Source of the DNA: an uncultured Dehalococcoidales bacterium
Lineage (GTDB): Bacteria > Chloroflexota > Dehalococcoidia > GIF9 > UBA5629
Assembly (NCBI GenBank): GCA_964554375.1
Contig: CAZKOL010000001.1
Location: 24,597 to 88,596, forward strand
DNA: 64,000 nt
Direction: 5' to 3'
Shown here: positions 24,942 through 30,387 of the stretch, one piece after another
Layout of the letters: every line of letters starts with the position of its first letter
Numbering within the stretch: position 1 is the first letter of the stretch
Translations under genes and position numbers: made by a program
Notes under the pieces: generated by a model
Told to the model about the DNA's origin: nothing
What the model saw: only the letters and a program-made list of their open reading frames with translations
The model's database searches: none

Positions 24942-26282
24942 TTATTTATAGTAGATATCTTCTTTCTTGAAACCGATGGGCCCGTTGTTCCTGCGGCTGA
25001 TCCTGCGCAGGACGGCGTCCACCTCCTCCCTGGTGAACCTGTAGCCCTTCCTGATGTCGTACAGGCTCCTGCTCTGTATCACCAGCCCGTAGATCACCTC
25101 CTGCACCTGCGCCGGCGTGTAGCCCTCCGTCATGCAGACCACGTGCTCCTGCACCGCCGGGTCGAGCGGTATCCTGCGGCACAGGTTGCGCACGATCTCC
25201 CGGCGCAGCTCCCTGCCGGGCGGACGCATGGTGATGACGCGGTCGAAACGCGAGGGACGCTGGCTGAGGGCGTCGTCCAGGGCCTCGGCGTAATTGGTGG
25301 TGGCGATGGTCACGACCTCGCTGCACTCCCTGACACCATCCAGGATGTCCAGCAGCTCGTTGAGGGCGTCCCCGCGGGCGCCCGGGCCGCCCCTGCTCTC
25401 CCCGATCAGGTCGATGTCCTCCAGGAAGACGATGGCGGGCCTGAGGTCGCCGGCTATGTCGTAGAGCTCCCTGATGTAGCGGGCGTGCACCAGCAGCGCC
25501 GGGTCGGCCGCCAGGCAGGTGACTCCGGGACTGTTGCTCATCAGAACTTTGGAGATGAGCGTCTTGCCTGTGCCCGGCTTCCCCGCCAGTATCAACCCCC
25601 GCTTGCGCGGTATGCCGTATTTTGCCAGCTCCTTGCTCCGTTTAAGGAAGCCCACCGTGTTGGCCACCAGCTCCTCCTTGATCTCGGGCTGCAGCGACAG
25701 GTCGTCCCAGGTCTTTGCGCCGGGCTGAAGGAACTCCAGGCCGCCGTTGTACTTTATCTTCTGACCCTTATAGAGCTGGAGTTTCTTTACAGTTCTGTCG
25801 ATGTCGGCGGCGAAGCGTTTTACCTCGTTTTTGATGCCAGCCGGCCCTTCGACGGCTATCCAGGCGCGTTCACCGTGGCGGCTGAACTTGACTCGCACCT
25901 CCAGCCGGCTGCCGGCGCGGCTCAGCAGCAGTCGTCCCTGGGTCAGCACGTTGACCCGCCTGCCCGGACCCGCCTCGATCTCGTTGTAATCGGGCTTCGA
26001 GTCTTTGTACAGGCCCAGCGCCCGCACGACCTTCCACTTTTCGCTTTTCAGGTAATCCTTGAGCGCCAGAGCCAGCAGGTTCTCGTAATAATGCTCCACC
26101 ACAACCGGCAACTCGGTTTTCTTGCCTCCACCCAGAAAGCCCTCGCCCATGTACGCCTGTTTTGCCCGCTGTTCGGCTATCTTAGACAGCGACGTGTTTT
26201 TCGGGGCGTCAACCTCGTCATCCTCGTCGTCTTCATCGCCGACGCACTCGATCATGTCGTACATTAGTCCGGGGTCCATTTT
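24942..26282 (-). CDS. AAA+ ATPase (classic AAA/CDC48 clade) with acidic N-terminus
   Basis: Walker A GKPGTGKT, Walker B IVFLEDID, second region of homology; start set at MDPGLMY with RBS agaaaagaggt; the longer ORF to 26510 lacks an RBS. Confidence 0.75.
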   Translation of the reverse strand, partial: KMDPGLMYDMIECVGDEDDEDDEVDAPKNTSLSKIAEQRAKQAYMGEGFLGGGKKTELPVVVEHYYENLLALALKDYLKSEKWKVVRALGLYKDSKPDYNEIEAGPGRRVNVLTQGRLLLSRAGSRLEVRVKFSRHGERAWIAVEGPAGIKNEVKRFAADIDRTVKKLQLYKGQKIKYNGGLEFLQPGAKTWDDLSLQPEIKEELVANTVGFLKRSKELAKYGIPRKRGLILAGKPGTGKTLISKVLMSNSPGVTCLAADPALLVHARYIRELYDIAGDLRPAIVFLEDIDLIGESRGGPGARGDALNELLDILDGVRECSEVVTIATTNYAEALDDALSQRPSRFDRVITMRPPGRELRREIVRNLCRRIPLDPAVQEHVVCMTEGYTPAQVQEVIYGLVIQSRSLYDIRKGYRFTREEVDAVLRRISRRNNGPIGFKKEDIYYK

Positions 26283-26428
26283 CACGTTTCTTACCTCTTT
26301 TCTAAGACTGCCATGATACTTTATAACGGGGCCGGGACAGCTATCTGTCACTCCGCCGGGGGACGGGTCAAGCGGGACTTTTTTATATGCCGATGATACG
26401 ATTAATTGTTGGAATATATAACAATCTC

Positions 26429-26458
26429 TTGACATGTTTTCATACCAAACAATATAAT
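26429..26458 (+). promoter_or_regulatory. sigma70-like promoter for the XRE-Panacea antitoxin operon
   Basis: TTGACA (26429-26434) - 18 nt - TATAAT (26453-26458), ~35 nt upstream of ATG 26493. Confidence 0.5.
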
Positions 26459-26492
26459 ATATTGTGTATAAAATGCAGATTTGGAGAATGTC

Positions 26493-27260
26493 ATGACTGA
26501 AATTAATCAACGAATAAAGACGTTGCGGCTAAATATAGGGGTAAGCCAGCAAAAACTCGCTGACATGCTGGGCGTTTCCCGTCCAACAATTACGCAGATA
26601 GAAGCAGGTGACCGGAAGATATCCTCTGCTGAACTGGTAAAGCTGTCTGAAATATTCAATCTCTCTGTCGATCAGTTGATTTGTTTGCAGGACGAGCCGC
26701 AGGTAATACTGCAAAATAAAATTCCGGGTAAGAAAATGGAACCCAGGATGAGGATTAATGTCCCACAAAAGAACCTGGACAAGTTTAAGGAAATCTTGAT
26801 TTATATCCTGAATAAAGTCGGCTCGAAGCCGAACATCGGCGAGACCGTGATTTACAAGCTCCTGTATTTCATCGATTTTGATTTTTATGAAAAGTACGAG
26901 AAACAATTGATCGGCGCCACTTACGCAAAAAATCATTATGGGCCAACGCCGCTGGAATTTAAGAAAGTGGTTGCAAAGATGATCTCCGACAACGATATCA
27001 CGAAGGTTCAGAATAGCTACTTCGATTACCCTCAGACTAAATATCTGCCCCTGAGGAAGGCCCATCTATCCGGATTAAATGCACACGAAGTTGAATTAAT
27101 AGATGGCGTACTGAATAAGCTGTCTGATATGAATGCCTCTCAAATAAGCGAATACTCCCACAACGACGTACCCTGGTTAACTACGGGAAGCGGGAAAATA
27201 ATTGAATATGAGGCTGTCTTTTACAGAACACCTTTGTATTCCGTAAGGGAATATTCCTGA
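26493..27260 (+). CDS. XRE-family HTH fused to Panacea (DUF4065/SocA-like) domain antitoxin
   Basis: N-terminal HTH LGVSQQKLADMLGVSRPTITQIE; C-terminal ETVIYKLLYFIDFDFYEKY...YGPTPLEF typical of Panacea domain. Confidence 0.75.
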   Translation: MTEINQRIKTLRLNIGVSQQKLADMLGVSRPTITQIEAGDRKISSAELVKLSEIFNLSVDQLICLQDEPQVILQNKIPGKKMEPRMRINVPQKNLDKFKEILIYILNKVGSKPNIGETVIYKLLYFIDFDFYEKYEKQLIGATYAKNHYGPTPLEFKKVVAKMISDNDITKVQNSYFDYPQTKYLPLRKAHLSGLNAHEVELIDGVLNKLSDMNASQISEYSHNDVPWLTTGSGKIIEYEAVFYRTPLYSVREYS

Positions 27261-27642
27261 TGGGTGTTTTTAAAAATCTTTCCCGGCTTCCTGAATTCGA
27301 TGAAGAATTGGCGAAACTTGGAAAGAGATTTAGAACTATCCAGGACGACCTGGGAATATTTATTGAAAAGCAACTATTTCTTTATCACAAATTAAAGATA
27401 GATAACAGGGGAATCTTTCAAATTACCGGTTTGTCGATAGATGATCCCAAGTTATTTAAAGCGAAAAAATTGCCTGCCGGTCTTTACCGGGCAGGGGAGT
27501 TCAATCCGGTATAAGAGTGATTTACGCATACTTTGAGAAACAGGATAAAATCGAGCTGGTGGAAATATATTTTAAGGGCGATAAGGAAAACGAGGACAGA
27601 CTTAGGATTCTTAAATACTACGGTGAACGCAGACAGCCGTGA
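27260..27642 (+). pseudogene. RelE/ParE-superfamily toxin gene, apparently frameshifted (frame 2 27260-27514 then frame 1 to 27642)
   Basis: 84-aa frame-2 ORF overlaps the antitoxin stop (ATGA); downstream frame-1 segment translates to IRVIYAYFEKQDKIELVEIYFKGDKENEDRLRILKY, the conserved RelE/ParE C-terminus; A6 run at 27464-27469 and G4 run at 27494-27497 are candidate slip sites. Confidence 0.55.
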
Positions 27643-27710
27643 TTTCCGCCGCACGTTGAACGACCGGCGCATGTGGTATAATTTTTTTCGGCGATGTAGA
27701 GGTGTGAGCC

Positions 27711-28703
27711 ATGAGGGAGAATAAGAAGGACAGGCTGGCGCGGCTGAGCAGGGTGGAACACCTGCTCTACCAGTGCCCGGACGGCCTGACCGTCATCGCC
27801 ATAGCTGAAAAATGCGGCGTTTGCACAAGAACGGCGCGCCGCGACCTTGTAGCCCTGGAGGCAATCGGGGTGCCCATATGGGAAGATAAATCCAGACGTG
27901 GCATCGCGCCGGGATACTTCCTGCCGCCCATCTCCTTCACACTGCCCGAGGCCATGACGATTTTCCTGGCGGCGCGGCTGCTGCTATCGTACAGCAACAC
28001 CTACAACCCCAGTATCGACTCCACCTTCGTCAAGCTTAACTCCGCCGTGCCCGCGCCGCTGAGGGACCAGGTGACGCGTACTATAGCCTGGATGCAGAAG
28101 CTCAATAAAAACGATAGGCTGCGCTGCACCATGGACACGCTGGCCCACGCCTGGATAAACGGACGCAGGGTGAGGATACGCTACCAGGCGCTGGGACGCC
28201 CCATCGCCAATGACAGGGTCATCGAGCCCTACTTCATCCAGCCGGCCACCTTCGAACGCGCCAATTACGTGATCGCCTACTGCAACCACGCCCGCAGGGT
28301 GCTGACCTTCAAGGTCGACCGTATCCAGGATATTGAGCTGCTGGACGAACGCTACTCCATCCCGGGGGACTTCGACGCCAATAAATTCCTGGAGCCGGCC
28401 TGGGGTATAACCGTCTACGGCAAACCGGTTTCCGTGAAGCTCAGGTTCAACTCTGAGATAGCCAGGCTGGCCCTCGAGACGAGATGGCACCCGTCACAGG
28501 CCGTGAAGACTCAGCCGGACGGCTCGGCCGTGGTCACGTTCAAAGTGCCGGTAACAGATGAGTTCATCGCCTTCGTGACGCGCTGGGGCGAGAAGGTGGA
28601 GGCGCTTCAACCCAATAGCCTGCGCAAGAAGGTCTCGGGAATAGCACGGGGGATGGTAAACATGTATGACACAACTATGAGCAGGGATAGAAAGTTGTTA
28701 TAA
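27711..28703 (+). CDS. WYL-domain transcriptional regulator (HTH-WYL-WCX; BrxR/CapW-like)
   Basis: N-terminal wHTH; WYL core RRVLTFKVDRIQDIELLDERY; C-terminal extension; 330 aa. Confidence 0.75.
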   Translation: MRENKKDRLARLSRVEHLLYQCPDGLTVIAIAEKCGVCTRTARRDLVALEAIGVPIWEDKSRRGIAPGYFLPPISFTLPEAMTIFLAARLLLSYSNTYNPSIDSTFVKLNSAVPAPLRDQVTRTIAWMQKLNKNDRLRCTMDTLAHAWINGRRVRIRYQALGRPIANDRVIEPYFIQPATFERANYVIAYCNHARRVLTFKVDRIQDIELLDERYSIPGDFDANKFLEPAWGITVYGKPVSVKLRFNSEIARLALETRWHPSQAVKTQPDGSAVVTFKVPVTDEFIAFVTRWGEKVEALQPNSLRKKVSGIARGMVNMYDTTMSRDRKLL

Positions 28704-28736
28704 TTCTAATCAACCAATGATAATTGGAGCTGATAA

Positions 28737-28946
28737 ATGAGATTTACCATCACTCTGGAAAAGGACGAAAACGGTTTCATTATTGCCAGTTGCCCTGCCC
28801 TGCAGGGTTGTCATTCCCAGGGAAAAACTAAAGAGGAAGCCTTAGCTAACGTCCAGGAAGCCATAAAGGGATACATCGCCAGTATGCGTAAGCACGGTGA
28901 GAAGATACCGGTTACAGAGACTGAAGAGGTAGAGGTCGGTATATAG
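28737..28946 (+). CDS. hicB: HicB-family antitoxin
   Basis: MRFTITLEKDENGFIIASCPALQGCHSQGKTKEEALANVQEAI UPF0150 signature; 69 aa. Confidence 0.75.
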   Translation: MRFTITLEKDENGFIIASCPALQGCHSQGKTKEEALANVQEAIKGYIASMRKHGEKIPVTETEEVEVGI

Positions 28947-29170
28947 TGGGCAAACTCCCGGCAATTTCCGGGGACGAATTCGTCAAGGCAGTTAACCGTA
29001 TCGGGTATACCTGGGATCACACAGAGGGCAGCCATATGATCCTGCTAAACCAGAATGGGAGAAGAGTGGCCGTTCCAAAACACAAGGAACTGGGACCGGG
29101 TTTGCTACGCAAATTAATTCGAGATGTCGGGTTAACAAGAACTGAATTCATGGAACTTCTTGAGAGATAA
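28946..29170 (+). CDS. hicA: HicA-family mRNA interferase toxin
   Basis: KLPAISGDEFVKAV...GYTWDHTEGSHMIL... GSH motif, YcfA-like; start overlaps hicB stop. Confidence 0.75.
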   Translation: MGKLPAISGDEFVKAVNRIGYTWDHTEGSHMILLNQNGRRVAVPKHKELGPGLLRKLIRDVGLTRTEFMELLER

Positions 29171-29203
29171 TCCGGCATTGAAGTTTATGTTATATCCTTT
29201 GCT

Positions 29204-29743
29204 ATGAAGAGCAAAACTGAAACAGCAGTCTTCGGCGGCGGCTGTTTCTGGTGCACCGAGGCGATCTTCGCCGAGCTCAAGGGGGTTATCAAGGTCATGC
29301 CCGGATACACGGGCGGCCGCACCGCTAACCCCACCTACCAGCAGGTGTGCAGCAGGACCACCGGGCACGTGGAAGCTGCCAGGATCGAATACGACCCGAC
29401 GCTGATCAGCTTCAACGACCTGCTGGAGGTATTCTTTTATACACACGATCCGACCACGCCCAACCGCCAGGGCAACGACGCAGGCGAACAATACCACTCC
29501 ACCATCTTCTACATAGACGAAGCCCAGAAAGAACTGGCCGAGAAATTTATTGAAAAACTGAATGCCTCAGGGGAATTCAATGCCCCCATCGTCACCACGT
29601 TGAGGCCGCTGACCAAATTCTTCGAGGCCGAGGACTACCACCGGGACTACTATCAGAAGAATACGGGGCACGTCTATTGCCGGATGGTCGTCGCACCTAA
29701 ATTGGCTAAACTCAGGGCAAAATTTAAGAACGCTACGAAATAA
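29204..29743 (+). CDS. msrA: peptide-methionine (S)-S-oxide reductase
   Basis: active-site GGGCFWC, full-length MsrA similarity; 179 aa. Confidence 0.9.
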   Translation: MKSKTETAVFGGGCFWCTEAIFAELKGVIKVMPGYTGGRTANPTYQQVCSRTTGHVEAARIEYDPTLISFNDLLEVFFYTHDPTTPNRQGNDAGEQYHSTIFYIDEAQKELAEKFIEKLNASGEFNAPIVTTLRPLTKFFEAEDYHRDYYQKNTGHVYCRMVVAPKLAKLRAKFKNATK

Positions 29744-29748
29744 TCGCC

Positions 29749-30387
29749 TTAAACAAATTTCTCGCAGAGATAGACCGCCGCCATCGCATCTTCCCCGTGG
29801 CCATCGCAGCCCATCTCTTTGGCCAGGCCCGGCGTGGTGCAGGCGCCGCCCAGGATGACCTTCACCTGGTCCCGCAGACCGGCCCTGGTGATCTCCTCTA
29901 CCGTGGAACGCAAGGAGACGACCATGGGAGTGAGCAGCATCGAGAGCGCCACGATCTTTGCCCGGTGCGCGCGCACCGCATCGACTATCCTCACTGCCGC
30001 AACGTCGGACCCCAGGTCGATCACCTCAAAACCGGAGGCGTTCAGCATCATGCCCACCAGGTTCTTGCCCATGTCATGGATATCCCCCTTGACGGTCGCC
30101 AGCACCACTGTGCCCTTGCCCTGTACATCTGTATGCGTCAGCAAAGGCTCCAGCGGGACCAGGCCGGCCTTCATCACCTCGCCCGCCAGCAACAGCTCGG
30201 TTAAAAAATATTCGCCGCTCTGGAAGCGCTCGCCCACGACCCTCATGCCTGCGCTCAGGCCGTCGTTCAGCACGGCGCGCGGGTCGGCGCCCGCCTCCAG
30301 GGCAGCGCCCACCTGTCCCGCCACCGCGTCTATATCCAGGCTGACAACCGCATCCAGCACAGCTTTTATAGCATCACGTTCGTTCAT
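29749..30387 (-). CDS. methyltransferase cognate corrinoid protein (B12-binding)
   Basis: B12-binding cap domain + Rossmann domain with DIHDMGKN (DxHxxG), SxL, ILGGA motifs; 212 aa. Confidence 0.8.
   Translation of the reverse strand: MNERDAIKAVLDAVVSLDIDAVAGQVGAALEAGADPRAVLNDGLSAGMRVVGERFQSGEYFLTELLLAGEVMKAGLVPLEPLLTHTDVQGKGTVVLATVKGDIHDMGKNLVGMMLNASGFEVIDLGSDVAAVRIVDAVRAHRAKIVALSMLLTPMVVSLRSTVEEITRAGLRDQVKVILGGACTTPGLAKEMGCDGHGEDAMAAVYLCEKFV

Follow-up and report, generated by a model that had tools for sequence, protein, structure and literature searches.

Why is a toxin gene that directly follows an intact antitoxin gene split between two reading frames? The question arises at positions 26429–27642 of the window, by which we mean the whole 64,000-nucleotide stretch of DNA from an uncultured Dehalococcoidales bacterium analysed here. 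In this region panA, the gene of an antitoxin with a helix-turn-helix (HTH) and a Panacea domain, is followed by an open reading frame (ORF) of 84 codons and then by a second frame. An earlier note on the locus had proposed three explanations: a sequencing indel, an inactivated toxin that leaves an orphan antitoxin, or programmed −1 frameshifting that controls the dosage of the toxin. The second of these fits the data best. The deletion described below is present on all contigs of the lineage that were read and the antitoxin side is intact. We conclude that the toxin gene has very probably been inactivated by a recent loss of one base and that the antitoxin has been left as an orphan.

Organization of the split toxin gene

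The 84-codon ORF occupies positions 27260–27514, directly 3′ of panA. An open stretch of the −1 frame runs from 27460 to the stop codon at 27640–27642 and reads SEKIACRSLPGRGVQSGIRVIYAYFEKQDKIELVEIYFKGDKENEDRLRILKYYGERRQP, including the stretch IRVIYAYFEKQDKIELVEIYFKGDKENEDRLRILKY quoted in the earlier note, so that the second open frame proposed there, related to the 84-codon ORF by a −1 shift, does exist. The A6 run (27464–27469) and the GGGG run (27494–27497) that had been named as slip sites are also present, and a −1 shift can join the two frames solely within 27460–27511. The joined frames encode a protein of 127 amino acids (aa), of which 56 homologous codons (72–127) lie in the second frame. 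The gene is divided as follows.

27260–27471, + strand: 5′ part of the toxin gene in the original frame, codons 1–70 and bases 1–2 of codon 71.
27472–27514, + strand: out-of-frame tail of the truncated product, read together with the leftover TT as the codons at 27470–27511 (LPAGLYRAGEFNPV) and ended by the stop codon TAA at 27512–27514.
27472–27642, + strand: 3′ part of the toxin gene in the −1 frame, codons 72–127 and the stop codon; ACRSLPGRGVQSGIRVIYAYFEKQDKIELVEIYFKGDKENEDRLRILKYYGERRQP.

The 5′ part aligns with residues 1–70 of intact homologues, with a hidden Markov model (HMM) match over positions 1–71, and the 3′ part, with a match over positions 69–124, encodes the conserved beta-sheet core and the C-terminal helix. 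No counterpart of the out-of-frame tail was found among the aligned intact homologues. The 3′ part carries no second defect and differs by one amino acid from each of the close intact homologues P0281 (G122D) and P0001 (Q126K).

More than 1,268 database homologues were found for the joined product. Among the 120 that were listed, nearly all are 122–127 aa long, with a query coverage of 93–100%, and an exhaustive profile search gave 659 clusters at 50% identity. Since the joined product matches full-length homologues, the two ORFs are parts of one gene; the join falls in a motif that is invariant in the homologue alignments, K67-A-K-K-F71-A-C-R-S-L. We also compared genome loci, taking the best-scoring 80 of 111, a choice that favours intact copies. 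The toxin is a single ORF in 80 of these 80 loci, and in all of them a PanA homologue (53–88% identity) lies immediately upstream on the same strand and abuts the toxin gene.

Position of the deletion

The earlier note sought the slip or lesion at the A6 or GGGG run and suggested alignment with intact homologues as a means of placing the shift. This alignment leads to the Phe71 codon; at the DNA level the missing base falls in the TT at 27470–27471 and in neither of the two runs.

27470–27471, + strand: lesion, a deletion of 1 nt, leaving TT in place of the TTT or TTC (Phe71) of intact alleles, directly 3′ of the A6 run.

P0281 (loci L097/L098, 98% amino-acid identity), the intact allele closest to that of the window, has AAAAAATTTGCC at the place of AAAAAATTGCC in the window. 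In the syntenic sister P0001 (90% amino-acid identity; gene order PanA, toxin, WYL regulator and, further on, MsrA and B12-binding protein) the sequence is AAAAAATTCGCCTGC, compared with AAAAAATT-GCCTGC in the window, and the sister loci L009–L012, which have TTC, read AAAAAATTCGCC at the lesion. Phe71 is invariant in 40 of 40 aligned homologues, and each of the 69 motif-matched genome loci encodes it by TTT or TTC. Judged from these alignments, the lost base is one T of the Phe71 codon, TTT having become TT at 27470–27471.

Occurrence of the deletion in contigs of different samples

The lesion lies in a homopolymer-rich stretch (A6 followed by T2 or T3), a context that would favour the explanation that the genome truly has an intact toxin gene and that the base was dropped in sequencing or assembly; frameshifts seen on single contigs elsewhere in the toxin family could partly be errors of this kind. 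However, different samples yielded at least 23 contigs with the exact 84-aa truncated ORF, for which the index lists 32 blocks. Its holders come from various pipelines, namely NCBI, JGI (3300028162), ENA (many ERZ272489xx entries with k141_ names), Logan and GEM, and the longest contig has 218,694 bp. We take the k141_ names to denote short-read contigs assembled with MEGAHIT; in short-read data of the MEGAHIT type, a systematic single-base deletion at a T3 run is rare.

The overall identity of eight lineage contigs to the window is 96.1–99.2%, which marks them as distinct strains. Although their flanks differ by 1–4%, all eight share the deletion and equal the window across the toxin gene, with no differences over 26340–30000; L001 and L004, which were aligned at the lesion itself, have the same deletion. 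An intact version of the window allele, repaired with either F71 or I71, was not found in a collection of 15 billion proteins. That the same broken ORF recurs on 23 or more contigs of varied sample origin excludes a sequencing error for practical purposes, and we give this first explanation of the earlier note next to no chance.

The possibility of programmed frameshifting

A different possibility is that a low level of −1 ribosomal frameshifting, or slippage of RNA polymerase, at the A6 run restores the toxin and sets a low toxin:antitoxin ratio, so that the split frame would be programmed or at least tolerated. The A6 run lies inside the only stretch in which a −1 shift joins the frames, the frameshifted allele is found on every lineage contig read, the downstream frame is undamaged, and a hairpin follows the run.

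27473–27496, + strand: hairpin CCUGCCGGU-CUUU-ACCGG(G)CAGG, 3 nt 3′ of the A6 run.

The minimum free energy of the 47-nt segment with this hairpin is −17.2 kcal/mol (z = −2.06; 5 of 200 shuffles were as good). Yet the intact sister L009 has this hairpin as well, and no comparable structure exists in the frameshifted lineages L013 and L015, which give −7.0 and −8.9 kcal/mol, respectively, against a family median of −8.3 kcal/mol. These values speak against a role as a conserved stimulator of frameshifting, and the hairpin is probably incidental. Conservation of a slippery run across the family was ruled out, as AAA AAA occurs in 8 and AAG AAA in 28 of 69 intact genes.

The −1 site of E. coli dnaX consists of the heptamer A AAA AAG, an upstream Shine–Dalgarno-like element and a downstream hairpin. 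The window resembles this site and the A-run sites of IS1/IS3 transposases in its A-rich run, which contains Lys codons, and in the hairpin that closely follows on the 3′ side. It differs from them in that the heptamer does not fit the X XXY YYZ register: in the zero frame, the codons GCG AAA AAA TTG give G AAA AAA, and A AAA AAT is out of register. Furthermore, no Shine–Dalgarno-like element was seen upstream of the A6 run, the spacer is 3 nt, and homologues do not share the shift. Slippage at the A6 run, or an extra A in it, would yield KKIAC, that is, an F71I replacement of the residue that is Phe in every aligned protein and every motif-matched locus. The frameshift is also without evolutionary depth, the nearest relative (P0281, 98% identical in amino acids) being intact, and disruptions at other positions of the toxin are frequent (see below).

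With the lesion being a missing T, the heptamer non-canonical, the shifted product altered at F71, the A-run rare, the hairpin shared with the intact sister allele and the breaks in the family scattered, the third explanation of the earlier note finds no support, and we regard recoding of this kind as very unlikely.

Age of the deletion

The downstream frame is free of a second defect, which indicates that the deletion in the inactivated toxin gene is recent. Compared with L097, the 3′ part shows six synonymous changes and one non-synonymous change; with outgroup polarisation, at most one to three of these, all synonymous, fall on the window branch, a number too small for a selection test. The ratio of non-synonymous to synonymous polymorphism (pN/pS) against the sister L009 is 0.04 in codons 72–127 and 0.18 in codons 1–70, values that mostly reflect the history before the deletion. 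As the eight frameshifted contigs are identical over about 26340–30000, selection after the deletion is not measurable. The data fit a very recent deletion.

Three observations weigh against simple inactivation. First, a perfectly kept downstream frame is also what continued recoding would produce, so that "recent" and "still selected" are inseparable by this measure. Second, the hairpin just behind the A6 run is fairly stable. Third, P0168 (L013/L014, A7 to A6) and P0257 (L015/L016, A6 to A5), each seen in two samples, have lost one base in the same A-run and have kept their downstream frames intact, a recurrence that a recoding site would show as well.

These observations could be combined into recurrent selected throttling, in which three independent lineages would each have lost one base in AAAAAATTY, and rare −1 slippage by the ribosome or RNA polymerase would supply a trace of toxin under the control of PanA. 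If this were true, the locus would be a recoding-gated toxin–antitoxin (TA) module and of wider interest, but we rate this reading as very unlikely. Homopolymer runs are expected hotspots of single-base loss; for this reason, we read the recurrence in the A-run as a mutational hotspot in a toxin gene whose loss is tolerated or favoured.

Probable consequences for the toxin and its operon

According to the proposed course of events, a strong promoter with a palindromic operator over its −10 hexamer would drive the HTH–Panacea antitoxin and a translationally coupled 127-aa toxin, an arrangement of the PanA–PanT type II kind. With one T gone from the Phe71 codon, translation would stop after 84 residues. 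Most of the sheet, together with the conserved R74, R86, Y89, Y104, K106 and K109, would never be made, which would render the toxin inactive. We infer the loss of toxicity from the removal of these parts by the truncation. The module may be autoregulated via the palindrome. The module would now be an orphan, probably self-repressed, with the antitoxin standing beside a toxin pseudogene.

The 84-aa product, predicted to comprise the short first strand, both helices and the strands next to them but not most of the sheet core, might instead have kept or gained a role of its own and still bind PanA, for example as a non-toxic co-repressor or partner, so that the truncated allele would be maintained by selection. 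In line with this, the ORF is still translationally coupled to panA, and the block 26340–30000 around the truncated allele shows no differences between strains that diverge by up to several percent in their flanks, a sign of recent spread. However, no evidence ties the uniformity of the block to the toxin allele; the block also contains the WYL, HicAB and MsrA genes. The other disrupted members of the family are broken at many positions or have lost the gene, so that there is no conserved truncated form, and the model of P0001 described below suggests that part of a RelE fold alone would probably not be stable. A retained function of the fragment is, in our estimate, improbable.

Toxin decay elsewhere in the family

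Toxin pseudogenes beside retained antitoxin genes are known from the evolution of type II TA systems. The window locus is like other decayed TA modules with orphan antitoxins in that the antitoxin, promoter and operator are intact and the toxin is broken by a single frameshift; nothing notable sets it apart. For this locus the event can be given a very recent date, and it is found on every lineage contig read.

We examined 80 PanA-anchored metagenome loci, a sample of relatives among the matches listed, with a best match of 94% and the window lineage not among them. Of the toxins in this set, 61 are intact and 12 are disrupted or missing; a further 5 run off the end of a contig, and 2 are ambiguous. 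The toxin is broken or missing in about 16% of the PanA-anchored relatives. Homology is lost near HMM positions 27, 29, 38, 57, 70, 88 and 102, and none of these loci is broken at the KAKKF frameshift site. Of the 150 top-ranking cluster representatives of the toxin, at least 27 are frameshift-like, with breakpoints spread over positions 65–99, and several more have internal deletions.

Two further arrangements were seen. In L158 and L165 (about 2264–2787), homology to toxin positions 1–38 resumes about 130 nt later with positions 30–122 in another frame, an arrangement suggestive of an insertion or duplication. The contigs L143 and L145, from Hainich groundwater, have a full-length PanA match and no detectable toxin.

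Predicted fold of the toxin

The C-terminal stretch of the second frame had been called the hallmark of a RelE/ParE toxin. Sequence models do not detect such a membership: the repaired toxin has no Pfam or NCBIfam match even at E ≤ 1 and no PADLOC match, and none of 40 family members compared with Pfam matches a RelE/ParE family or any other model. The sole match in a PHROGs scan was phrog_5869 (E = 1e-4), a family with no annotated function. In a profile search of the PDB, the match to HigB-2 was not significant (E = 0.12), and a match to a reductase was spurious.

The predicted structure, on the other hand, does support the fold. For P0001, the 90%-identical homologue, the AlphaFold2 model has a mean predicted local distance difference test score of 84.4 and a predicted template-modelling (TM) score of 0.80. 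Its elements are predicted as strand 6–9, helix 11–21, helix 27–43, strand 52–54, strand 64–74, strand 81–92, strand 97–105 and helix 114–121. This topology (a strand, two helices, four strands, one of them short, and a helix) would be that of the RelE/ParE fold. On this model, the 5′ part of the window gene would encode strand 1, helices 1 and 2, the short strand and, of the first long strand (64–74), about half. The top 50 Foldseek matches in the PDB are all RelE, HigB-2, HigB, YafQ, YoeB, ParE or PfiT toxins or small proteins of the HP0892/HP0894 type, with probabilities up to 1.00 and target-normalised TM scores of about 0.36–0.69. A RelE/ParE-type fold is thus supported by the predicted structure, while sequence models give no family membership.

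The likeness extends to ribosome-dependent mRNA interferases of the RelE/HigB type, which the model resembles in predicted topology and fold. Examples are 1wmi, 5ja8/8a0x, 4fxh and 4q2u (RelE of P. horikoshii, HigB-2 of V. cholerae, RelE of E. coli and YafQ, respectively); the best matches to this type have a probability of 1.00 and target-normalised TM scores of 0.57–0.69. The weak profile match to HigB-2 spans the region of the G-x-G…R-V/I-I-Y…Y-K motif. Basic and aromatic residues are conserved in the family (K67, K69, K70, R74, R86, Y89, Y104 and K106), and residues of these kinds sit in the sheet, as in these interferases. We infer that the intact toxin may act as an RNase; the alternative would be gyrase poisoning, as by ParE. 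Unlike them, the family shows a sequence identity of only 11–20% and no significant sequence-model match, is longer (about 125 aa, compared with about 85–95 aa for classic RelE) and is partnered by PanA, whereas RelE and HigB are partnered by RelB and HigA.

Pairing of this kind has been described before. An HTH at the N-terminus of a Panacea-domain antitoxin is reported for 343 PanAs, and the toxin domains listed as PanA partners include ParE and MqsR-like ones, among others (Kurata et al. 2022, PMC8832971); RelE/ParE is among the recurrent folds in a later network (Ernits et al. 2023, PMC10440598). The window locus agrees with the PanAT systems in being a two-gene operon with a small toxin and an antitoxin that has an N-terminal HTH and a Panacea domain above the Pfam threshold. 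The differences are that Pfam, NCBIfam and PADLOC have no model matching its toxin family and that the window copy is frameshifted. A PanAT module with a RelE-fold toxin is of a known kind, and the window copy is a new, decayed example.

The genome loci come from Chloroflexota, Planctomycetota, Nitrospirota, WOR-3, Aminicenantes, Atribacterota, Patescibacteria and two archaeal metagenome-assembled genomes (MAGs); the nearest toxin relatives among the best 80 of 111 are in Dehalococcoidia/Chloroflexota MAGs. Intact PanA–toxin pairs were seen in MAGs labelled Aenigmatarchaeota, Woesearchaeota and Patescibacteria (L025, L088 and L090). Toxin identities of 55–70% across such distant MAGs would imply wide horizontal transfer. 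Outside the window, P0151 is a predicted protein of 3,334 aa with the toxin domain at its extreme C-terminus (profile positions 2–123 at residues 3209–3330, E = 6e-30); it could be a fusion in the style of polymorphic toxins or an artefact of gene calling.

Antitoxin gene and promoter

Upstream of the toxin pseudogene, the operon comprises the following features.

26429–26458, + strand: sigma-70-type promoter of the panA–toxin operon, TTGACA at 26429–26434, an 18-nt spacer and TATAAT at 26453–26458.
26449–26465, no strand: perfect palindrome ACAATATA-A-TATATTGT, with arms of 8 + 8 nt that are 100% complementary, centred on the −10 hexamer.
26493–27260, + strand: panA, 255 aa, intact, with an ATG start, HTH_3 at residues 8–62 and Panacea/DUF4065 at residues 121–228.

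The TTGACA-N18-TATAAT promoter that the earlier note pointed out is in place and matches the consensus at 12 of 12 hexamer positions. No second match to this pattern occurs in the window, where shuffles lead one to expect 0.04, and both hexamers and their spacing are kept in the relatives L009, L011, L097 and L017.

As a candidate operator, the palindrome may be bound by the HTH domain of PanA and so allow autorepression of the operon. In L017, a palindrome of other sequence, TGAGATAT-A-ATATCTCA, stands at the same place. Across the promoter regions of L009, L011, L097 and L017, the outer bases vary and the symmetry is retained (ACAATATA/TATATTGT, ATATATAT-type, TGAGATAT/ATATCTCA), as would be expected of an operator that co-evolves with its HTH. 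When PanA is compared with P0273, 12 of 16 substitutions fall within the first 50 residues, the HTH region. The changes in the palindrome and in the HTH region hint at operator–HTH co-evolution or at module swapping.

The assignment of the antitoxin to the type with an XRE-like HTH and a Panacea (DUF4065) domain is borne out by Pfam, with HTH_3 (PF01381) at E = 7e-15 and SocA_Panacea (PF13274) at 68.3 bits against a gathering cutoff of 25.7 (E = 1.3e-18; profile positions 2–112 of 113). At 255 aa the protein is as long as the sister PanAs, and an identical PanA protein is found on 14 contigs. The sequence GGAG at 26483–26486 lies 6 nt 5′ of the ATG; a TTG at 26481 is an alternative start. The overlap between the panA stop and the start of the 84-aa ORF, also observed earlier, consists of one shared base in TGATG (27258–27262), where the A of the panA stop codon TGA (27258–27260) is that of the toxin ATG. 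In its sequence layout, an antitoxin-first bicistron with overlapping stop and start codons and a promoter with a palindrome over the −10 hexamer, the operon has the appearance of a type II TA module. The G+C content is about 38–44% in the module and about 60% in its flanks, as is typical of a horizontally acquired module.

Neighbouring genes

The block of about 3.7 kb at 26340–30000, which contains panA, the toxin pseudogene, a WYL regulator, hicBA and msrA, is identical or nearly so in L001–L008. Its flanks, on the AAA ATPase side and on the side of the B12-binding and URO-D genes, differ from the window by about 1–10% per 250-bp bin. The uniformity of the block suggests a recent recombinational spread or a gene-specific sweep.

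Directly 3′ of the toxin, in the window and in the sister lineages, lies a gene for an HTH–WYL–WCX regulator (27711–28703, + strand). In PADLOC, the regulator matches the N-terminal 320 positions of the "Cas3c" model (E = 8e-67) and CRISPR-associated WYL models. The motif TGgTATAAT, resembling an extended −10 element, occurs at 27674–27682. Between the WYL gene and msrA, a hicB–hicA pair (HicB_lk_antitox, HicA_toxin) occupies 28737–29170; in the sister lineage L009–L011, a DUF4258/DUF2283 pair is found at this place, and the occurrence of differing pairs at one place indicates a small hotspot of TA module exchange. Upstream of the TA promoter, a divergent gene (24942–26285, − strand) encodes an AAA ATPase of 447 aa with PADLOC matches to IetA (E = 9e-22) and TRIP13 models, and it may be defence-related. 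On related contigs the AAA ATPase is followed by an 82-aa ORF and a gene with a DnaJ domain.

Conclusions

For the window organism, a PanA gene beside a toxin pseudogene amounts to an orphan antitoxin, and this is mainly a point of annotation: the ORFs of 84 and 41 aa delivered by gene callers are the two halves of one toxin pseudogene. For the toxin family, which is strictly paired with PanA, is predicted to have a RelE-type fold and has no Pfam or NCBIfam model, the results make a family model and a toxicity test worthwhile. That about one in six toxins is disrupted or missing beside an intact antitoxin provides a background against which "functional" TA systems in metagenomes may be counted.

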